Origin: an uncultured Clostridia bacterium
GTDB lineage: Bacteria; Acidobacteriota; Aminicenantia; UBA2199
Direction: 5' to 3'
Assembly (NCBI GenBank): GCA_964491915.1
Contig: CAZBHS010000027.1
Span: forward strand, 2,694 to 66,693
Length of the DNA: 64,000 nucleotides
Both the position numbers and the translations under genes were made by a program. Position 1 is the first letter of the stretch. Each line of letters starts with the position of its first letter. Shown here piece by piece: positions 6,105 to 41,890 of the stretch. A model generated the notes under the pieces. It ran no database searches. It worked only from the letters and a program-made list of their open reading frames with translations, and was not told the DNA's origin.

Positions 6105-7865
6105 ATGAGACGAGTCATTTTAATTATTATTTTTTCAATTATGTTGAGCTTTCCGGCGCTGGCGGACGACCAGCAAATGATATCCGCCGACACGGAATTC
6201 CTGATCAAAGGCACTGTCACCAATGCCGCGAACAATGAACCCTTCAGTCACGGAAACATCCTTTTAAGAAAACACACAGCGGGAAAAATCACGACCACAT
6301 CCTTTGCCATAGGAGACGATGGAACCTTCAGGCTCCCGGACATACCCACCGGGACATACACCATCGCCATAGATATTTTCGGAGCCTCGCTAAAAACCGT
6401 TGACTCGTTTAAAATTACTGAATTCAAGCTAGAGAGCGATCAGACATTCAATATTTTGGTCAAGCCGCGGGCAATGGATTTCGTCCTGATATATGTGGGA
6501 AAAATCCGGGACTTCATGTGGGGCAATTGGATGATCCTCCTCCTGGTTGGGGCCGGAGTTCTTGTCACCTTCGCCACACGCTTCGTTCAGATCAGAAGGC
6601 TAGCCAGGGCTCTTGGTTATGTCTTCAAAGGCAATTCCAAATCCGAAAGAGAAAAGATGAAAAAAATGGAAGGTGACATCTCACCCTTCCAGGCGTTGAT
6701 GACGGCCCTCGCAGCCACAGTCGGCAATGGAAACATCGCCGGCGTAGCAACGGCAATCGCGGTGGGCGGCCCCGGAGCTCCATTATGGATGTGGATCGCG
6801 GGCTTTTTCGGAATGGCGACCAAATATGCCGAAGGATTTCTAGGAGTGAAATTCCGTATCAAAAATAAATTGGGCGAAATGGCCGGCGGCCCCATGTATT
6901 ATGCCCGCGAGGGTATTAAAAACAAGACTATCGGTAAAGCCTTAGGCGCCACATTCGCCGTCATGGGCGGAGTCGCCGCTCTGTTCGGCACCGGTAACAT
7001 GGCCCAGTCAAACTCTATGGCGCTGGCGGTCAACACCGAGTTTAGCATCCCGTTTTGGGTAACCGGCCTGCTTTTGGCTATCTTTACCGGGATTGTCACC
7101 ATCGGCGGCATCAAGCGAATCGGCGAAGTTACAGAAAAATTGGTTCCCTCGATGATTTTCCTCTACTTCGGAGGCGCATTGATCATCATTCTGGCGAATT
7201 TCTCCGGCATCCCCGAAGCGTTCAAAATCATATTCCAGGCCGCCTTCACCGGAAAAGCCGCGGCCGGAGCATTAATCGGAACCTCGATCCAGCGGGCTAT
7301 ATCCATCGGCGTTAGCCGCGGAGTACTATCCAACGAATCAGGAATGGGCACAGCCTCCATCGCGCAGGCAGCCTCGTCGTCGCCGGACCCCACCTACAAC
7401 GGGCTGATCGCCATGACCGGCACTTTTATCGATACCATCCTCGTCAACACCCTCACAACGCTATCCATTGTCCTCTCGGGCATGTACCTGCACACCCAGG
7501 CGTTCGGTGTTTCCAACGGGCTCACGTCAACGGCATTGACTCAATCGGCGTTCAATACAGTCATACCTTTCGGAGGAATAATCGTAGCTGTGGCCTCACT
7601 GCTATTTGGGTACTCCACATTGGTCGCCTGGTCATATTATGGTGAGAAATGCCTCGAGTACCTATTCGGTGTAAAAATTATCATGAGCTACCGGTTGGCG
7701 TTTGTAGTACTGATTTTTGTGGGAGCGATCATTCAGGGCGCCCACCTAAACATAATCTGGTACATCGGCGATATCAGCAATGCCCTATTAATCATCCCCA
7801 ACGTACTCGCCATCGTGTTTCTCACAAAAATATTGCGCCGGGAAACCATCAAAAAACTATACTAG
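6105..7865 (+). CDS. alanine/glycine:cation symporter (AGCS family) with an N-terminal signal peptide plus CarboxypepD_reg-like extension
   Basis: AGCS signature SPFQALMTALAATVGNGNIAGVATAIAVGGPGAPLWMWI followed by a multi-TM body. I set the start at ATG 6105 (MRRVILIII, AGAGG 7 nt upstream) rather than track start 6057. Confidence 0.9.
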   Translation: MRRVILIIIFSIMLSFPALADDQQMISADTEFLIKGTVTNAANNEPFSHGNILLRKHTAGKITTTSFAIGDDGTFRLPDIPTGTYTIAIDIFGASLKTVDSFKITEFKLESDQTFNILVKPRAMDFVLIYVGKIRDFMWGNWMILLLVGAGVLVTFATRFVQIRRLARALGYVFKGNSKSEREKMKKMEGDISPFQALMTALAATVGNGNIAGVATAIAVGGPGAPLWMWIAGFFGMATKYAEGFLGVKFRIKNKLGEMAGGPMYYAREGIKNKTIGKALGATFAVMGGVAALFGTGNMAQSNSMALAVNTEFSIPFWVTGLLLAIFTGIVTIGGIKRIGEVTEKLVPSMIFLYFGGALIIILANFSGIPEAFKIIFQAAFTGKAAAGALIGTSIQRAISIGVSRGVLSNESGMGTASIAQAASSSPDPTYNGLIAMTGTFIDTILVNTLTTLSIVLSGMYLHTQAFGVSNGLTSTALTQSAFNTVIPFGGIIVAVASLLFGYSTLVAWSYYGEKCLEYLFGVKIIMSYRLAFVVLIFVGAIIQGAHLNIIWYIGDISNALLIIPNVLAIVFLTKILRRETIKKLY

Positions 7866-8021
7866 CGACAAAGGCTTCAATATAAAAAAAGTAAACTCAA
7901 TCTAAAGAATAGGTAAACGGGGTAGCAAAAAGACAACTTTTTGTTGCCCCACCATCAATTATTTGTAACACCGTCGAATTTAGAGCCGAAATCCCAAAAC
8001 ATTGAATGCACACGCTTAAAG

Positions 8022-8042
8022 AGTGTAAAGTTTTTTTACACT
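8022..8042. promoter_or_regulatory. palindrome AGTGTAAA-gtttt-TTTACACT (candidate enhancer/UAS site 1)
   Basis: Perfect 8-bp arms with a 5-nt spacer. The core is TGTAAA-N5-TTTACA. It sits about 248 bp upstream of the sigma-54 -24 element. Confidence 0.55.
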
Positions 8043-8092
8043 ATCACTACAAGAAATCCCTTTTGTAACAGTATTATCGAAAAAAATCAAAA

Positions 8093-8113
8093 AGTGTAAA
8101 AATTTTTTACACT
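8093..8113. promoter_or_regulatory. palindrome AGTGTAAA-aattt-TTTACACT (candidate UAS site 2)
   Basis: Perfect 8-bp arms identical to site 1, 71 bp downstream of it and about 177 bp upstream of the -24 element. Confidence 0.55.
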
Positions 8114-8177
8114 AATCAAAAACACCGCGAATAACACCGATAACACAACCTAAACACCGATACGCGGATACTTGCGC

Positions 8178-8196
8178 CTGTAAAGGTTCTTTACAG
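8178..8196. promoter_or_regulatory. palindrome CTGTAAAG-gtt-CTTTACAG (candidate UAS site 3)
   Basis: It contains the same core, TGTAAA-ggttc-TTTACA (8179-8195), about 93 bp upstream of the -24 element. Confidence 0.5.
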
Positions 8197-8278
8197 TAAT
8201 TATCAAACACAAATATGATTAAAAGAACAAACATCTCAAAACCGCCAATATATTAGCATCCTATCAAAATAGAAAACC

Positions 8279-8294
8279 TGGCATCCGATTTGCT
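8279..8294 (+). promoter_or_regulatory. sigma-54 (RpoN) -24/-12 promoter
   Basis: TGGCAT-ccgat-TTGCT. GG is at 8280-8281 and GC at 8292-8293, giving exact GG-N10-GC spacing. It lies in a gene-free gap between convergent genes. Confidence 0.65.
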
Positions 8295-8305
8295 ATACAA
8301 TATAG

Positions 8306-8498
8306 TGGTAATTGAAATGATGAGAAAAACAGAAATTCTAGTAAATATCGCGGTAGCTGCCGGATGGGACGGCAACTTCAGCGTTCGTTCATTTCAATCT
8401 GACCGAGTAACTTTTATTAACAGAACACTTTCCTATTGGGGTGGGAAAAGTGATAGATAAAAGGGGGGGATGGCAGTAAGCTATCCTCCCCCTTTTGT
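8306..8498 (+). ncRNA. candidate sigma-54-dependent short transcript (~190 nt): structured sRNA, or mRNA for a 47-codon ORF (8317-8460)
   Basis: It is bounded by the sigma-54 promoter and a hairpin terminator. ATTGAAATGA (8311-8320) is perfectly complementary to TCATTTCAAT (8389-8398), a 10-bp long-range helix. The ORF reads MMRKTEILVNIAVAAGWDGNFSVRSFQSDRVTFINRTLSYWGGKSDR and has no convincing Shine-Dalgarno, unlike most genes here. Confidence 0.35.
8463..8498 (+). terminator. Rho-independent terminator
   Basis: GGGGGGGAT (8463-8471) pairs with ATCCTCCCC (8483-8491), including one G-U pair, with an 11-nt loop. It is followed by CTTTTGT. Confidence 0.6.
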
Positions 8499-18692: not shown

Positions 18693-21671
18693 TTAGAACA
18701 TCAACTTAACGCCGATCCGGGCAGCCAGAGAGGCGAGATAGTTTCTCTCCATCTTGTACTGAGGATCGAGTTTTGCGCCTTTGGACTGTACCTGGCCAAC
18801 TGCGTCGAAGCCGTCAAAGATGACCTGTTCGTCAACATAGATAACGCCTTCGTTGTAAAGCTGATGGATTCTCTGAGCGATTTCGTTGTTGGTAACGTTA
18901 GTTACGTTTACATTGAACTGTAAGGTATATCTGTCGCTCAGTTTCATGTTATATTCCAGATAAGCATCGGCGGCCCACAGGAACGGAGTCCGATCCAGGT
19001 TGCCTCTGCCGTAAGGATACCATCCCTGCATACCGTTCAGATAAACTTCTGTCTGCACGGGGGTACCGGTCATTGCATAGGCGTTGAAACCAATGGTCAG
19101 ACCGAAATCCCAGGAATAGGCGCCATACAGTTTGAACTGTAAGCTTCTGTCGGTGGGCAGAGGACCGGTGTGGTCTTTGCCATCTTCAGTGTAGGTCATG
19201 AACCAGGCGTCAAAGTATCTTTCAACGCCGGGGTCTTTACGACCATGCTCATCGGAACTGGCCAAACCAGAGAAGTTACCTTTCAAGCTACTCCAGGTCA
19301 AGGACAAACCACCCAACCAGTTGTTGGAGAATTTTTTATCCAAATTGGCCTGAATGGAGTAGTAATTACGGATAGCTTTTGTGGCCTGGATACCCTGCGG
19401 CATAAGACCCAGAGCCTGCACTTCGTCATACTTCTGCTGGATCCAGTCGGAGCCGGGGTTGCCATTGAAATAAATTTCGCCTTCGGGATACTGCACACCG
19501 ATGTCTTCGATGGCGTTCACGATGGTGTTGTGTAAGAATCTTACGCTCAACGCAACATCTTCAGTAATTTTTTTCTGCACACCGAGGGTGTACTCATATT
19601 TGCTGAAGGGTTTCATGTTGGGCTGAGTGGTATCGAAGGACGGGATCCTCCAGTTACGGGATTCCAGATAGGGATTGCCATTAAAACTGTCAACCGGGTG
19701 TACATCTACGTTAGTATATGCATCCCAATTGGGGTTCTGAATGTTGTAATAATGGGAAACCCATTTGAATCCACCATAGGAACCTTCAGCCATGGCCAGC
19801 TTCATTACGTCATAATAGATACCGAAAGATCCGAAGATCTTGAGGTCGGAATCGCCAAAAACGTCATAGGCAAAACCAAGCCTAGGAGCAATTTTGTCGC
19901 CGAAACCAAACTGGATCGGCGGATCGGAATATTCAGGAAGGTCGCTGAAGGAGGGGATATCCTCTTTCTCAAACCTAACACCGGCGTTGACAGTCAATTT
20001 TTCTCCGACGGTCCACGCATCCTGAAGATAAACCGCAAAACGGTTGCTGGAAATGTTAGCAATCGAACCAAAAGGAGATCTTACTTCAACATAACCCAGG
20101 TCGGTACCAATGGTCTGACCGGAATTGGGGGATTCAAAATCGTCGCCCCAGTAAAAGCGGTTGTAGTTGTAAGGATAAGCGTCATCCTTATCAACACCGA
20201 CTTTCACATACTGAAAACCGATCTTCCATACATGTTCGCCAGCTAGATTCATGTAGTAGGTCAAATCAGCGGTGGCGGTCAACTTGTTGTTGATGTCTTT
20301 GTTGGTTGCGAAACCATCATAGTAACCATAGTTTGCATAATATAGGGGTACTACGGGGTTGCCATAACCAGAAGAAGCTCTCAAGTGATAGAAACGGGGG
20401 CCTTCGGGTTTGACGCCCTGGAGCCGGTTCGTTTTCCAGTAACCAGCGGTGACGTTCAACATCGCGTTGTTACCGATGGTATAATCCAGGCTACCACCAA
20501 CGGTGAAGCTGGGATATTCCCAAGTCTGGTCTTCCCAGGCTTTGAGACCGTTACCGGAACCATCCAACGGAGGCAGTTCGCCGTCTTCATTCCAGCTATC
20601 AATGGTACCACTCAAGGACAAACGCACATTATTGGCAACCTGACCAGTCAATTTCAAAGAACCGGCATAATAGGTGCGATCACGGGTGATTTCCCTATTC
20701 AGTTCGGGCGAAGCTGAAAAGACTCCGTCTCTGGTGGTTTTGTAGAACTTAGGCATAAAGCTGCCGAAGAACCACAATTTGTCTTTGATGATATAGCCGC
20801 CGATACCGATACCGGGCTCGATACGAGACCATGAATCTTCGGGATAGGTGACGTATTCAGCGATTGTGTCATCATAAGGATTGTGACGCAGAGTCGGAAC
20901 TGGGTCATAACCCAGGGCGCTACCGTCATAATACAACATGGCAGAACCGTGGAATTCATTACCACCACTACGGGTGATAACACTGATAACACCACCCATG
21001 GACCCACCGTATTCAGCAGCGTAACCGGAAGATTTTACCTGGACTTCTTCGATGAAGTCAAAGTTTACGTCCTGCCCGGATTCACCACTGAACAATGTGG
21101 TTGTGTCGACACCGTCTACGAAAAAGACATTTTCAGAACTACTTGCACCGTCAAACGAAATACCGCCGAGCTCTTCTTCATTGTTAACACCAGCAGAGGT
21201 GGTAACGATGGAGGTAAAGTTACGGCCTTTCGGTAATTTGGTGAAGGTTTCTTTGGTGATATTTACCGTGGTGGCACTCTTACGAACATCCAGAACGGGG
21301 GACTGTCCGGTGACGACGATCTCTTCACGGATAGCACCAGTCTGCATGATCACATTGATTTTAATGGTTCTACCGATATCAACCCTGATCTTTTCCCGTT
21401 TGATGGTTTTAAAACCTTCAAGACTAAAGGTGATGGTATAATCACCGGTGGGAAGAGCGAGCAACCGAAAGCCACCATTTTCATTCGATACTGTCGTACG
21501 GACACCAACCATGTTAGTACCAGTCGCTTCGATTGCTACGCCTGGGATAGCGGAGCCATCTTCGAGCACTACTGTTCCAATAACTTCACCTGTCTGCTCC
21601 TGAGCGAACATTGTACCGCCAAAGAGTAACGCAACAGCGAAGAACAAAACCAAACATTTTTTGTTAAACAT
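18693..21671 (-). CDS. Oar-like TonB-dependent outer-membrane barrel with N-terminal CarboxypepD_reg domain (module 1, D)
   Basis: 992 aa with a signal peptide. The CarboxypepD_reg segment is GTVVLEDGSAIPGVAIEA...NENGGFRLLALPTGDYTITFSLEGF. A plug-like region follows (VVTGQSPVLDVRKSATTVNITKETFTKLP), then a long beta-rich body. The C-terminal residue is Phe (GVKLMF). GGAGG lies before the ATG. Confidence 0.85.
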   Translation of the reverse strand: MFNKKCLVLFFAVALLFGGTMFAQEQTGEVIGTVVLEDGSAIPGVAIEATGTNMVGVRTTVSNENGGFRLLALPTGDYTITFSLEGFKTIKREKIRVDIGRTIKINVIMQTGAIREEIVVTGQSPVLDVRKSATTVNITKETFTKLPKGRNFTSIVTTSAGVNNEEELGGISFDGASSSENVFFVDGVDTTTLFSGESGQDVNFDFIEEVQVKSSGYAAEYGGSMGGVISVITRSGGNEFHGSAMLYYDGSALGYDPVPTLRHNPYDDTIAEYVTYPEDSWSRIEPGIGIGGYIIKDKLWFFGSFMPKFYKTTRDGVFSASPELNREITRDRTYYAGSLKLTGQVANNVRLSLSGTIDSWNEDGELPPLDGSGNGLKAWEDQTWEYPSFTVGGSLDYTIGNNAMLNVTAGYWKTNRLQGVKPEGPRFYHLRASSGYGNPVVPLYYANYGYYDGFATNKDINNKLTATADLTYYMNLAGEHVWKIGFQYVKVGVDKDDAYPYNYNRFYWGDDFESPNSGQTIGTDLGYVEVRSPFGSIANISSNRFAVYLQDAWTVGEKLTVNAGVRFEKEDIPSFSDLPEYSDPPIQFGFGDKIAPRLGFAYDVFGDSDLKIFGSFGIYYDVMKLAMAEGSYGGFKWVSHYYNIQNPNWDAYTNVDVHPVDSFNGNPYLESRNWRIPSFDTTQPNMKPFSKYEYTLGVQKKITEDVALSVRFLHNTIVNAIEDIGVQYPEGEIYFNGNPGSDWIQQKYDEVQALGLMPQGIQATKAIRNYYSIQANLDKKFSNNWLGGLSLTWSSLKGNFSGLASSDEHGRKDPGVERYFDAWFMTYTEDGKDHTGPLPTDRSLQFKLYGAYSWDFGLTIGFNAYAMTGTPVQTEVYLNGMQGWYPYGRGNLDRTPFLWAADAYLEYNMKLSDRYTLQFNVNVTNVTNNEIAQRIHQLYNEGVIYVDEQVIFDGFDAVGQVQSKGAKLDPQYKMERNYLASLAARIGVKLMF

Positions 21672-21710
21672 TAAACCTCCTCAAAATTTTGTGGATTGAG
21701 GTATAATACA

Positions 21711-21726
21711 AGCAATAATTTTGCCA
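21711..21726 (-). promoter_or_regulatory. sigma-54 promoter of the minus-strand barrel gene
   Basis: The minus strand reads TGGCAA-aatta-TTGCT with exact GG-N10-GC spacing. The -12 element is about 40 nt upstream of ATG 21671, with GGAGG in between. Confidence 0.65.
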
Positions 21727-21794
21727 AGCCCCTTCACTTTGTGAAACCTCTTAACAATTAGTTTTCACAATAGTAGAAAAAAATAAACCAAAAG

Positions 21795-21813
21795 TTTGGA
21801 TTCCACATCCAAA
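21795..21813. promoter_or_regulatory. palindrome TTTGGAT-tccac-ATCCAAA between the two divergent sigma-54 promoters
   Basis: Perfect 7-bp arms with a 5-nt spacer. It sits about 80 bp upstream of the minus-strand -24 and about 175 bp upstream of the plus-strand -24, which is a candidate activator-site position. Confidence 0.35.
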
Positions 21814-21976
21814 ATAACGGATCGCCTATTACGGGAATCTATTTTCCATTATATAAAGATTTGATATAATATGAAAGAAGTTGAACTCTATGCAGTAACC
21901 TATTAGTTGGGGTTCAGGGAAAACACAAATACTTTTTTACACTATTTTAGAATTGAAAGAGCAGGCCAACCGCATA

Positions 21977-21992
21977 TGGCACGACTTTTGCT
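21977..21992 (+). promoter_or_regulatory. sigma-54 promoter of the plus-strand barrel gene
   Basis: TGGCAC-gactt-TTGCT, a full consensus with GG at 21978-21979 and GC at 21990-21991. It is about 110 nt upstream of ATG 22102, which is preceded by AGGAGG. Confidence 0.7.
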
Positions 21993-22101
21993 AAATATTT
22001 TAGCTATGTATTTAAAGAAATGTGCTAAATTTTATAGAGCCAGGCCCAATTGGCAAAAAAAGCTTTATAGGATCTAGCCTAAGTTTAGTTAGGAGGTATT
22101 T

Positions 22102-24909
22102 ATGCTAAAACGTATTTCCATTGTAATTGCTGCTGTATTCTTCCTGGTTTCAGTTAATTATGCACAGTTGAACCAGACAGGAATGATTAGCGGTATCGTA
22201 AATTCCCCAGACGGAACCCCGATGCCAGGAGTCACCGTCGTAATCAAATCACCGGCGTTGGTTCTTCCTGAGATGACAACTATTTCCTCTGAAAATGGAA
22301 GATATCGGTTTCCCTCCCTTGCTCCCGGTACTTATGAAGTAAGCTTCATACTCGAAGGAATGAACACTCTAGTCCACAAAGGCATTGTTGTTAGCGTTGG
22401 CGTTACCAGCCGTGTCGATGTGACGATGGAACTTCAGTCCATTCAGGAAAGTGTCGTGGTTGAGGGACAGTCTCCCACGGTTGACCGTCAGAGCACAACC
22501 AGAGCCGCTAACCTGGATTCTGAGTTTCTGGATTCAATCCCCGCATTGAGAAACCTGGGTACCTATTTCAATATGACCCCCGGTGTCACCAGCGATTCAG
22601 TACATGGAAGCTCCGTTCGCGACAGCGCTTACAACCTTGATGGCGTCAATCTGGCCGACCCCACAGTCGGAACCCAGGGTGTCTTCTTCGGAATGGACAT
22701 CATGGAAGAGGTCTCCGTTCAGAGCGGCGGTCTCTCGGCTGAATACGGTAGTGTCAGAGGCGCGGTCATCAACGTCGTCTCCAAATCCGGTGGAAACAAA
22801 TTCAGCGGAACCGCCAGCGTCTATTACAGACATGAAAGTCTGCAGTCGGACAACACAACCGGTACTCCGTTAGAAGGCGAATTCAGCGGTTACAAGTACG
22901 AGGTAGAACCGGGAATCACCCTCGGCGGCCCCATTGTAAAGGACAAATTGTGGTTTTTTACCAACCTCAGTTTCAACAAGAGAGAGCAGTTCATCTCCGG
23001 TTATCCTTACGACGCCCCCGAAGGCCAGGAAATCCCTTATGATGATTACCGTCCCTATCCTTACATCAAGTTGACTTTCCAGCCCAACCAGGCCAACAAG
23101 TTCATCTTGTCGTACAATTATTCCGACATCACGAGAAATCACCGTGGAGCCAGCCGTTATATGCTGGAAGAGTCCACCCGCACCCAGGAAACACCGACTC
23201 ACGTTTTTAATGCGCATTGGACCCGCTCCTTCGGTAGTAATTTCTTCATGAACTTCAAAGCCGGCGGTTACGTGAGCGACTTCAACATGCTCACCAAAAC
23301 CGCCGCTTTACCCACCTACGAATATCTGAATAACCGTCAGACCGGTAACTATGGTTATGACGATTTAAACCAGAGGGACCGTCTGCAGATTAACGTCGAC
23401 GGCACCATGTTTGTGGATGACCTCGCAGGCGCCCACGAGCTAAAATTCGGCGGCGAATTCCAGTATGGTTGGACCGGCCGTCAGCTCAATTTCCCCGGCG
23501 TCGCAAGCCCGGAGTATCCCGGTTTGAACGCTTACTCCGTATATCTGTGGGACGGCGAACCTTTTTATGCGACATTCTATGCTCCTTACGACGTAAAAGA
23601 GCAGATGATGAATGTATCGCTGTTCGTTCAGGATACATGGTCTATCACCAACAACCTCACCTTGAACCTGGGCCTCCGTTATGAATACCAGAAAGGCATG
23701 ATTCCCGTACAGGGAGTCGATGCAGGCCCGATGGAGCTCTTTGGTTATTCCTACTTCAGGAATGTCGATGAGACTATCACCGCCAACACCTGGAACACAT
23801 TGGCGCCCAGGGCCGGCTTCATCTATGATCTTTTCAGCGATGGCACGACCTTATTGAAAGGTAGTTACGCCAGATATTACATCGCCAACATTACCCAGTG
23901 GTTCTCCGGTATCAATCCTAACGGATTCGTCAGCTATAGCGGCTACATCTATCCCGACCTCAGTCTCCAACAGCTCGCGGGATTGGGCGTACCCACTCCG
24001 GAAGACCTGGCCCAGTTGGGATACAACGATTATGATCTCGAAGCTCCTTATGTAGACGAGGTCACAATCGGTATCGAAAAAGAACTCTGGGAAGATTGGT
24101 CCATCGGTCTCCGTTACATCAAAAAATGGGACAAAAAACTCATCGAAGATGTCAACTCCAAAGCCTTGGATATCGACGCCTTGATGGACAATGGCGAACT
24201 CATCTGGACCAACTGGGAACCCCTTACCGTCACCGATCCTTATGACGGCAACTCGGTCACTTTTTGGCAAGAGAAGCAGACTTTCAACCCCAAATATTAC
24301 GTAGTGAACGCGCCTGGCGCCACAAGAGATTACGATGGTATCGAGTTCACCTTGAACAAACGTTACTCTAACGGATGGTCTTTGAACGCATCCTACGTCT
24401 TCCAGAATTCCCGTGGTTTGATCGGAACCGACTTCGACGACAGTTGGGGCGGCACCGGTTACTACGACAATCCCAACAACCATATCTACGCTGTTGGTAG
24501 ATTCCCGTTGGAAAGACGTCACCAGGTTAAAATCCAGGGTCTGGTCAAAGGTCCTTGGGGAGTCAACCTGAGTGGTTACTTCAGATACCTCTCCGGTCAG
24601 AGATACACCCGGGCGGTTCGCTCGTTGGATCTCGGACTGCAGCTCAGCCATGATGATGAAACCATCTATGCTGAGGAAAGAGGTTCTAGAGGTTATCCGG
24701 GCCTCGCCATCCTCGACTTGAGGGTGGAGAAAGCTTTCAAACTCGGCCCCGTTACGTTGCGCGCCTTCGTTGACATTTTCAACGTATTCAATAGCGGCGT
24801 AGCCACTGAATACTACACAATTTCCAGTAATCCTGGTATTGAATTCGAGACTATGGAAAGCATTTCCGATCCGAGAATTTTCAGATTGGGCGCCAAGATC
24901 GAATTTTAA
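22102..24909 (+). CDS. Oar-like TonB-dependent outer-membrane barrel with N-terminal CarboxypepD_reg domain (module 2, D')
   Basis: 935 aa with a signal peptide. The CarboxypepD_reg segment is GIVNSPDGTPMPGVTVVIKS...SENGRYRFPSLAPGTYEVSFILEGM and the plug-like region is VVEGQSPTVDRQSTTRAANLDSEFLDSIP. The C-terminal residue is Phe (GAKIEF). It is a paralog of 18693-21671. Confidence 0.85.
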   Translation: MLKRISIVIAAVFFLVSVNYAQLNQTGMISGIVNSPDGTPMPGVTVVIKSPALVLPEMTTISSENGRYRFPSLAPGTYEVSFILEGMNTLVHKGIVVSVGVTSRVDVTMELQSIQESVVVEGQSPTVDRQSTTRAANLDSEFLDSIPALRNLGTYFNMTPGVTSDSVHGSSVRDSAYNLDGVNLADPTVGTQGVFFGMDIMEEVSVQSGGLSAEYGSVRGAVINVVSKSGGNKFSGTASVYYRHESLQSDNTTGTPLEGEFSGYKYEVEPGITLGGPIVKDKLWFFTNLSFNKREQFISGYPYDAPEGQEIPYDDYRPYPYIKLTFQPNQANKFILSYNYSDITRNHRGASRYMLEESTRTQETPTHVFNAHWTRSFGSNFFMNFKAGGYVSDFNMLTKTAALPTYEYLNNRQTGNYGYDDLNQRDRLQINVDGTMFVDDLAGAHELKFGGEFQYGWTGRQLNFPGVASPEYPGLNAYSVYLWDGEPFYATFYAPYDVKEQMMNVSLFVQDTWSITNNLTLNLGLRYEYQKGMIPVQGVDAGPMELFGYSYFRNVDETITANTWNTLAPRAGFIYDLFSDGTTLLKGSYARYYIANITQWFSGINPNGFVSYSGYIYPDLSLQQLAGLGVPTPEDLAQLGYNDYDLEAPYVDEVTIGIEKELWEDWSIGLRYIKKWDKKLIEDVNSKALDIDALMDNGELIWTNWEPLTVTDPYDGNSVTFWQEKQTFNPKYYVVNAPGATRDYDGIEFTLNKRYSNGWSLNASYVFQNSRGLIGTDFDDSWGGTGYYDNPNNHIYAVGRFPLERRHQVKIQGLVKGPWGVNLSGYFRYLSGQRYTRAVRSLDLGLQLSHDDETIYAEERGSRGYPGLAILDLRVEKAFKLGPVTLRAFVDIFNVFNSGVATEYYTISSNPGIEFETMESISDPRIFRLGAKIEF

Positions 24910-24945: not shown

Positions 24946-24977
24946 GGGGACGCTTTAACCAGCGTCCCTTTTTTTTA
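24946..24977 (+). terminator. Rho-independent terminator
   Basis: GGGACGCT-ttaacc-AGCGTCCC followed by T9, about 35 nt after the stop. Confidence 0.85.
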
Positions 24978-25140
24978 TCCAATTATTTGGATCATCACTC
25001 CCCACCAACCCCCCACTGAATATTCCCTCATATTAGGAAGAACTCCCCGCTGATCTGGACCACCCGCATGATGATCTCTCAAGATATAAGAGCGCTCTTA
25101 GTGAGGAGTATTAGGAGGATCGGTGAGAAGGTGATGGGTA

Positions 25141-29348: not shown

Positions 29349-29377
29349 ATTATATTCAATAGGATGAATCAAGTCAA
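29349..29377 (-). promoter_or_regulatory. sigma-70-type promoter of GWxTD module 2 (leaderless geometry)
   Basis: The minus strand reads TTGACT (29377-29372), a 17-nt spacer, then TATAAT (29354-29349). The A of ATG 29342 is 7 nt after the -10 hexamer, and there is no Shine-Dalgarno. Confidence 0.6.
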
Positions 29378-40849: not shown

Positions 40850-41890
40850 CTAGATTTGAATGAGCCGGTATGTTGTCGAACCGAGCCCTATTTTTTCAGC
40901 GTACAAAAGTTGCTCGCCCCCTTTGAAGGCTTTGCCTTTTTCTTCAGCCATATCGAGGCATACTTTGTCGATGGCCACCGGATCCGTCGAAACGAAGATC
41001 CCAAAATCCTCCATGATAGGATCCATCTTTTTGGGCTCGCAGTCGCAGCCCTTGGTGACATTCATGGCCAAATTGAAGTAGATGTTCTTCTTGCCCAATT
41101 GCGCCGCATAGGCGTATTCCGCCAATTTTTCCCTGAACTTTTTCCCTTGCAACAAACCGTTGTAGATCCCCTTCAATGAGATGATGGAGATCGCCTTCTC
41201 CGGACAAATGGCAACGCACGCCCCGCAACCGACACATTTCTCGTGATCGATGAAGGATTTCTCGCCGATAGTGATGGCATCCTCATTGCATCGAGTCTTG
41301 CAAAGATTGCATTTCTTGCATTTGCGGTTGACGATCCTGGGCTTGATGCCCATGTGCATGGCCAATTTCCCTCCCTTGGAGGCGCAGCCCATGGCCAACT
41401 GTTTAATGGCTCCGCCGAATCCCGCCATCATATGTCCCTTGAAATGGGAAATAACAATGAGCTGATCATAATCTAAAAAAGCTTTACCAATTTTGCAGGT
41501 TTCAAAGTGATTCATATCGATGGGAATCTCGACAAACGCTTCGCCTTGATCTCCATCGGCGATGATGATGGGAAGCTGGTTAAAGCCGTGCTCTTCGGCG
41601 GTTTTCAAATGAAGGTCTTTCTTGTATCTCTGCCCCCCGTACATGACGCTGGTCTCCATATAGCAGGTTTCGATATCCCTCTCTTCCAAAAACCCGATGA
41701 TCCCCTCGTAATTCTCCGACTTGAGGAAGGTGGTGTTTCCCTTCTCGCCAAAATGAACCTTCAACGGAACCTTCAGACCAAGTTCGATATTCTCTCTCTC
41801 TACGATTTCCCGCAACAATCGCCGCGTGATTCCTTGAATCTCTTCCACCGTCGTGTTTGAATCCACCTTTTTATAATACACATTCGACAT
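40850..41890 (-). CDS. DUF362-domain protein with 4Fe-4S dicluster ferredoxin insert
   Basis: 346 aa with HFGEKGN, ISHFKGHMMAGFGGAIKQLAMGCASKGGK, and two Cys clusters (CKKCNLCKTRC and CVGCGACVAICP). Confidence 0.8.
   Translation of the reverse strand: MSNVYYKKVDSNTTVEEIQGITRRLLREIVERENIELGLKVPLKVHFGEKGNTTFLKSENYEGIIGFLEERDIETCYMETSVMYGGQRYKKDLHLKTAEEHGFNQLPIIIADGDQGEAFVEIPIDMNHFETCKIGKAFLDYDQLIVISHFKGHMMAGFGGAIKQLAMGCASKGGKLAMHMGIKPRIVNRKCKKCNLCKTRCNEDAITIGEKSFIDHEKCVGCGACVAICPEKAISIISLKGIYNGLLQGKKFREKLAEYAYAAQLGKKNIYFNLAMNVTKGCDCEPKKMDPIMEDFGIFVSTDPVAIDKVCLDMAEEKGKAFKGGEQLLYAEKIGLGSTTYRLIQI

Follow-up and report, generated by a model that had tools for sequence, protein, structure and literature searches.

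A likely divergent sigma-54 control region with a putative shared tandem-dyad enhancer between two Oar-like barrel genes of an uncultured Aminicenantes bacterium

Results

The window, by which we mean the whole 64,000-nucleotide stretch of DNA analyzed here (C27:2694-66693), comes from a metagenome-assembled genome of 5.49 Mb in 158 contigs with 48% GC, and its close relatives carry the labels Candidatus Aminicenantes or Aminicenantia. Within it, a 430-bp spacer (21672-22101) separates two divergent, paralogous barrel genes. The left gene (18693-21671, minus strand) encodes a 992-aa Oar-like TonB-dependent barrel protein in which a CarboxypepD_reg extension, a Plug domain and an OMP_b-brl_4/TonB_dep_Rec barrel are all detected. 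The right gene (22102-24909, plus strand) encodes an Oar-like protein of 935 aa with CarboxypepD_reg and an OMP_b-brl_4/TonB_dep_Rec barrel; its Plug domain stays below threshold, with no match at E <= 1e-3, and a second domain check found Plug in the left copy only. Based on these domains, we assign both products to the TonB-dependent transporters, probably to the Oar subclass as defined in PMC6434023. The two genes form the center of a mirror-image pair of GWxTD / GWxTD / TPR-CarboxypepD_reg modules.

The spacer contains two predicted sigma-54 -24/-12 promoters that point away from each other, each toward its own gene. The right-hand promoter, P_R (TGGCACgacttTTGCT, 21977-21992, plus strand, matrix score 25.0), has a core (TGGCACGACTTTTGCT, aTGGCACGACTTTTGCTa) that matches the consensus TGGCAC-N5-TTGCW in full and lies 110 nt before the ATG at 22102, which is preceded by an AGGAGG ribosome site at 22091-22096. 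Its predicted start near 22003 would leave a leader of ~99 nt. The left-hand promoter, P_L (TGGCAAaattaTTGCT, 21726-21711, minus strand, matrix score 23.2), has a core (TGGCAAAATTATTGCT) that departs from the same consensus at one position (TGGCAA) and lies 41 nt before the ATG at 21671, with GGAGG (CCTCC on the plus strand) at 21676-21680 and a predicted start near 21700 that would give a leader of ~29 nt. The weight matrix was built from this genome's own sites, P_L and P_R included, and scores in other genomes are unaffected by that choice. A first-pass annotation of this DNA had described the two cores, their GG-N10-GC spacing, their orientation and their GGAGG-type ribosome sites, and we recovered every one of these at the positions given above.

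Motifs this short could be chance matches in AT-rich intergenic DNA, and the window does hold two further exact matches, within genes, that are probably meaningless. We counted TGGCA-N6-TTGC in the window and observed five matches where 0.52 +/- 0.73 are expected, a count that 0 of 100 shuffles reached; the first-pass estimate of chance matches was ~0.5. The three matches listed in the first pass (8279 plus, 21712 minus and 21977 plus) are among the five, and two were missed (1711 minus and 41275 plus). These two are intragenic, in long ORFs spanning 767-1891 and 40850-41890, and with scores of less than 13 in the matrix built from this genome they are probably background. The third intergenic core (TGGCATCCGATTTGCT, 8279-8294) has the top matrix score in the window (25.9), and no ORF of at least 100 aa lies downstream of it.

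The genome possesses the machinery that sigma-54 control presupposes, and here, as in each of the other refuting checks of the first-pass annotation that can be run on sequence, the outcome favored its reading. There is one intact rpoN, a 465-aa ORF with Sigma54_CBD and Sigma54_DBD (the core-binding and DNA-binding domains), and a search for enhancer-binding proteins gave 20 strong matches to PF00158 (Sigma54_activat), corresponding to about 20 full-length genes. TGGCA-N6-TTGC occurs 75 times genome-wide, including 34 intergenic matches, with intergenic defined as the ~9% of sequence outside crude longest-ORF greedy calls (91% of the genome coding). The same letters at control spacings of N3-N5 and N7-N9 yield 0-2 intergenic matches, so that ~95% of the intergenic N6 matches are expected to be real sites.

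Most of these intergenic matches (26 of 34) point at a start codon within 300 nt, and several adjoin activator genes; 1.1% of this genome's genes have an upstream matrix score of at least 15. The predicted regulon consists mostly of envelope and surface genes (PEGA, CARDB, FG-GAP, Big_7, OMP_b-brl, OEP, a PilX-like pilin, a multihaem cytochrome and FtsX/MacB), and the genes 3' of sigma-54 sites also include a branched-chain permease, a response regulator and an AraC regulator. Such an envelope-heavy gene set is the usual "cell exterior" flavor of sigma-54 regulons. Many sigma-54 cores of this genome additionally keep a TA ~7-9 nt after TTGC (TTGCTATGTATA, TTGCTTGTATTA), at ~0.5 bit per matrix position, and this may be how the -12 region, or the start-site context, is extended in this lineage.

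We examined conservation among relatives of the right barrel drawn from species-representative genomes and from 61 genomes of the same family. A GG-N10-GC site equivalent to P_R was found 48-165 nt upstream, on the coding strand, in 23 of 27 non-redundant relatives (27-94% identity; matrix score at least 13), and 18 of the 23 keep the exact nine bases of TGGCA-N6-TTGC. The motif is thus conserved upstream of orthologous barrel genes. The opposite strand of these upstream regions reaches a score of 13 only where a second, divergent barrel gene is present (loci L002, L010 and L004). No sigma-54 site was found upstream in the other four relatives (L008/L009, L020, L022 and L023); the N-termini of L008/L009 and L020 are alike, and these may form one sub-clade.

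Alignment of the four divergent-pair spacers (the window, L002 at 94%, L010 at 67% and L004 at 68%) revealed that the P_L columns GCAAT-N5-TGCCA are invariant across all four loci. Even where the proteins are 94% identical, the center of the spacer has diverged, whereas P_L, P_R with its leader, and a palindrome block between the promoters are kept. A site that recurs at the right place and on the right strand in 23 of 27 relatives while its flanks diverge, together with the excess over shuffles in the window and an intergenic excess limited to the N6 spacing, effectively refutes chance as the origin of the cores, and we give that explanation almost no weight.

Within this genome, the sigma-54 motif is specific to the Oar-like subfamily: best scores stay below 6, with no motif, for six TonB receptors of the classical type and for two further receptors that carry CarboxypepD_reg. 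RpoN control had been flagged as unusual for TonB-dependent receptors, which stands as a general statement but not for this Oar-like subfamily, where in this bacterial family it is the rule.

The first-pass annotation had proposed a palindrome TTTGGAT-tccac-ATCCAAA (TTTGGATtccacATCCAAA), which is present at 21795-21813 and does belong to a conserved palindromic element, but the unit turned out to be two 16-bp dyads, whose inner half-sites make up the proposed palindrome. TTTGGAT-N5-ATCCAAA itself occurs once in the genome and has no informative relatives, and we rejected it as a functional unit in favor of the 16-bp dyad model. The dyad came to light when inverted repeats were sought ahead of every barrel promoter and the consensus that took shape was then used for a scan. 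The recurrent element is ATYCAA-N4-TTGRAT, usually in two copies 21 bp apart (31-32 bp in genus g14). In the window, putative enhancer dyad A (AACCAAaagtTTGGAT, 21786-21801) carries one mismatch to this consensus and putative enhancer dyad B (ATCCAAaataACGGAT, 21807-21822) carries two, with the two centers 21 bp apart. The pair is conserved in L002 and L010, and the 5.49-Mb genome has this one tandem pair and no other when up to three mismatches are allowed over both dyads.

Measured from the first base of each dyad to the T of TGGCA, the distances at barrel loci are 88/67, 87/66, 86/55, 88/56, 96/76 or 110/90 nt. Modulo 10.5 these all fall between 1.5 and 6.0, indicating that the sites are helically phased with the promoter. 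Of 24 barrel sigma-54 promoters, 16 have a dyad 40-130 nt upstream, in 14 cases as a phased pair, compared to 0 of 32 other sigma-54 promoters of the genome and 2.7% of random intergenic windows. Loci L003, L005/L019, L006, L007 and L029 have the promoter with no recognizable dyad.

A family-wide pattern search, covering the genomes outside g14 with its longer spacing, returned ~47 tandem pairs in 28 of 61 genomes compared to three for a reversed control. Sites of this kind mark barrel paralogues of as little as 29% identity. Wherever the contig extends far enough, a sigma-54 core lies 66/87 nt beyond the pair and an Oar-like barrel comes next; this holds for paralogues at 29-35% identity and for genera that have no close orthologue (L082, L084, L085, L088 and L095), where the other tandem pairs run into a contig end. 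This recurrence of pair, core and barrel defines a conserved family cassette, in the order dyad-21-dyad, -24/-12 core, Oar-like barrel, with up to five such cassettes per genome and barrels of 27 to 94% identity. Since the pair is unique in the genome, holds fixed, phased positions at barrels across the family and is absent from all 32 other sigma-54 promoters, it is likely the enhancer for the barrel sigma-54 promoters.

The third Oar-like paralogue of this genome (C15:108673) has a one-mismatch core (TGGCAAaggttATGCT, score 14.5), and the dyads were not found there; it probably uses a different activator or is no sigma-54 target. In other genera we observed two barrel paralogues in tandem rather than divergent, each with its own sigma-54 core (L021/L007 at G009:C32, and L071-L073 in genus g14). 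At 151-185 kb on G009:C32, barrel-like genes form one long array, and the barrel family has undergone repeated expansion.

Two solitary dyads lie elsewhere in the window. A perfect dyad (ATCCAATTATTTGGAT, 24977-24992), the sole perfect intergenic one in the genome, stands directly behind the terminator (hairpin plus T-run) of the right barrel gene. L002 has a perfect dyad with a different N4 (ATCCAAAATATTGGAT, 6924-6939) in the corresponding, otherwise diverged spacer, and the corresponding spacer of L010 has no such dyad. No sigma-54 core was found near 24977-24992, and the dyad there may be a remote or auxiliary activator site. The other, a one-mismatch dyad (ATTCAATAGGATGAAT, 29354-29369), sits in the 17-nt spacer of a predicted sigma-70 promoter (TTGACT...TATAAT, minus strand) of the GWxTD module-2 operon. 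NtrC represses glnAp1, and by analogy the barrel activator might repress the module-2 operon through this dyad; as the dyad is not conserved in the genus relative G010 (L062), it may be a chance occurrence.

A conventional promoter was also considered. The AT-rich center of the spacer contains TTTCCA-16-TATAAT with an upstream TG on the plus strand (21843-21870) and TTCATA-16-TATAAT on the minus strand (21875-21848), so a sigma-70-type promoter there could drive one or both barrel genes, leaving the sigma-54 motifs accessory or vestigial. Hexamers of this kind are, however, no more frequent in the spacer than chance would have it (4 compared to 2.3 +/- 1.2 in shuffles), and they fall in the part that is unconserved even in the 94% relative, whereas the sigma-54 cores and dyads are conserved family-wide. 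We regard sigma-70 control as improbable and the sigma-54 cores as the likely promoters.

The TTCAC-ttt-GTGAA palindrome (TTCACtttGTGAA) noted in the first pass is indeed present at 21733-21745, but its left arm does not recur even in L002, at 94% identity, and we rejected it as a control element; a longer TGTGAAA-N17-TTTCACA repeat is kept within the genus only and is uninformative. The P_R leader (22003-22101, ~99 nt) is almost identical in the 94% relative despite the diverged spacer center and contains a 12-bp hairpin (UUUUAUAGAGCC...GCUUUAUAGGA). A structured leader or riboswitch was rejected on a fold z of -0.02 compared to shuffles, and the sole Rfam match to the leader at E <= 1 was a viral pseudoknot, which is spurious. 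The genome has three HU/IHF-family genes, and we found no convincing IHF site.

The position of the dyad pair relative to the two promoters is asymmetric. The dyads start 75 (A) and 96 (B) nt upstream of the T of TGGCA in P_L and, with centers near -94 and -115 relative to its predicted start, show canonical geometry. From the corresponding T of P_R they start 170 (B) and 191 (A) nt away, with centers at about -189 and -210 from the predicted start. In L002 the P_R distances are 180/201. Modulo 10.5, the P_R distances of the window and L002 amount to 1.5-2.0, within the 1.5-6.0 phase of proximal sites in the family; this shared phase is suggestive only of enhancer use by P_R.

These distances allow a narrower reading, in which both sigma-54 promoters are real and the dyad pair serves the left gene alone, with the right gene responding to another site or activator and no strict co-regulation. 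The perfect dyad 3 kb downstream at 24977-24992, or a different enhancer-binding protein, could then supply the right gene. Such an arrangement would fit the canonical distance of the pair from P_L only (-96/-75), and it would fit the single-gene orthologues of the right barrel, which have their own dyad pair at -88/-67 where P_R has no proximal pair. It also agrees with L004, a genus-g2 relative in which each promoter appears to have its own sites, and with the recurrence of a perfect dyad downstream of the right gene in both the window and L002. With no proximal pair at P_R and separate sites in L004, enhancer sharing by P_R is a step that we infer.

Other observations weigh against a left-only enhancer. 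Upstream of P_R in the window, L002 and L010 we found no other dyad (at up to two mismatches) and no other conserved block, leaving no second pair within the 170 nt before P_R, and this favors one enhancer serving both promoters. The P_R distances are in phase with proximal sites, as noted, albeit only suggestively. Enhancer-binding proteins work in either orientation and at 100-200 nt and beyond, as is established for NtrC. Shared enhancers of divergent sigma-54 promoters have also been documented (PMC3897727). We therefore consider a left-only enhancer possible but unlikely, and favor a single enhancer that probably serves both P_L and P_R. The first-pass proposal that one activator could co-induce both barrels remains plausible in this form, but the enhancer it invoked is asymmetric, canonical for P_L and distal (170-191 nt) for P_R, which makes co-induction less secure for the right gene.

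We also sought candidates for the activator. A PF00158 search found no activator gene on this contig. The promoter of L003, a 60% orthologue, is directly preceded by genes for a histidine kinase of PAS/GAF type and for a response regulator of NtrC type; we rejected this pair because it has no orthologue in this genome (best 42%) and L003 is without dyads. The same locus has two more strong sigma-54 cores downstream of its barrel gene (7003-8377 of CAYPGQ010000004.1), preceding a 250-aa ORF and a 146-aa activator-like fragment, which suggests that L003 is a small local sigma-54 regulon.

Three small genomes that carry the cassette encode 7, 12 and 9 activators, and comparison with this genome identified four orthogroups common to all four genomes: C16_63193, C39_28107, C8_107365 and C15_80449. 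The first three are full-length, each with Response_reg and Sigma54_activat. We detected HTH_8 in two of the candidates, C8_107365 and the short C15_80449, and at E <= 1e-6 the other two, C16_63193 and C39_28107, gave no match to it. A 918-aa kinase (C8_104612) precedes C8_107365, of which 58 of 61 family genomes have a single copy. The g14 genomes place C8_107365, together with this kinase, 7-19 kb from the barrels, and in G039, the one genome examined for this, it is immediately upstream of GWxTD genes. Its presence in genomes without close barrels as well makes the case for C8_107365 weak, and we offer it as a lead rather than an identification. No dyad was found near any activator gene of the genome, except for a lone one-mismatch dyad 1.2 kb from C11_4800.

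Discussion

Together, our results make it likely, and we hold this with good confidence, that the 430-bp spacer is a divergent sigma-54 control region with a shared tandem-dyad enhancer. In the model that these sequences point to, transcription of both genes would depend on sigma-54 in vivo, with RNA polymerase carrying sigma-54 bound at P_L and P_R as closed complexes that would stay silent until remodelled by an NtrC-family AAA+ enhancer-binding protein, which would act from the dyads. Because the dyad centers are 21 bp, or two helical turns, apart, two activator dimers could bind to the same side of the helix and from there seed assembly of the active ring. The enhancer would reach P_R by DNA looping, and a single signal, sensed through whichever of the activators recognizes the dyads, would by virtue of the shared enhancer induce both Oar-like TonB-dependent barrels.

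Divergent sigma-54 promoters of this kind have precedents, among them E. coli zraP/zraSR with ZraR, whose layout is similar to that of the orp1/orp2 operons of Desulfovibrio vulgaris Hildenborough. The orp1/orp2 operons are divergent, sigma-54 dependent and co-activated by DVU2106 (OrpR), with IHF sites in the spacer (PMC3897727, PMC8359166). Like orp1/orp2, the locus described here has two back-to-back -24/-12 promoters with activator sites, putative in our case, between them, such that a single activator could induce both. Unlike in orp1/orp2 and zraP/zraSR, the targets are not cell-division or zinc-stress genes but paralogous Oar-like barrels, no adjacent gene encodes the activator, and the enhancer is strongly off-center.

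The putative enhancer itself can be compared with the NtrC-type enhancer of glnAp2 in enteric bacteria, in which two dimer sites lie on one helical face ~100-140 nt upstream of the sigma-54 promoter. Both have tandem palindromic sites; those described here are separated by roughly two turns of the helix, lie ~85-115 nt ahead of the predicted start and keep helical phase with the promoter from one homologous locus to another. They differ in half-sites (ATYCAA-N4-TTGRAT here, TGCACC-N5-GGTGCA at glnAp2) and in the regulated function, which here is not nitrogen assimilation. By analogy, the mechanism would be the standard switch of sigma-54 and an enhancer-binding protein, with NtrC-like tandem sites in a divergent, shared-enhancer layout as in orp and zraP-zraSR. 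No new mechanism is revealed; what is new is the target class (Oar-type TonB-dependent barrels), the lineage (Aminicenantes) and a defined cis-element.

TonB-dependent receptors are textbook targets of Fur, of ECF sigma/anti-sigma cascades or of hybrid two-component systems. Oar of Myxococcus xanthus, the namesake of its subclass of TonB-dependent transporters, is needed for PopC secretion (PMC6434023). The proteins studied here resemble that subclass, as far as their sequences tell, in an N-terminal CarboxypepD_reg (PF13620) followed by Plug and a large barrel, at ~930-1000 aa, and depart from it in the right copy, whose Plug falls below Pfam thresholds. We found no mention of sigma-54 control of Oar-type genes in PMC6434023 or in our literature searches, and these searches returned no publication with both "Aminicenantes" and "sigma-54". 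A 2025 PSSM survey of sigma-54 brings up TonB, in its main text, for Flavobacteriia alone, where the TonB protein itself (COG0810) is meant, and the stem "Acidobacteri" is absent from that main text (PMC12316311). The predicted regulon of this genome, dominated by envelope and surface genes, is in line with a broader theme of sigma-54 biology. Francke et al., in BMC Genomics in 2011, reportedly described sigma-54 as a controller of the cell exterior.

A wider proposal is that one dedicated enhancer-binding protein, acting on ATYCAA-N4-TTGRAT tandem dyads, governs a family-wide radiation of Oar-like transporters through sigma-54, and that in this genome the off-center enhancer and the remote third dyad loop to both genes. 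We regard this proposal as evenly balanced between true and false. If it holds family-wide, barrels for large-substrate uptake or secretion would be gated by an all-or-none, signal-dependent switch and not by Fur or ECF sigma factors.

A complete sigma-54 cassette, from the phased dyad pair through the -24/-12 core to the Oar-like barrel, can thus be read from sequence across an uncultured family. The doubled ATYCAA-N4-TTGRAT element can be used to annotate the regulon in Aminicenantes metagenome-assembled genomes, and the four conserved candidates provide an activator shortlist for testing. Heterologous assays built on these components may offer a route to learning what these abundant subsurface and wastewater bacteria sense before deploying their largest outer-membrane barrels.
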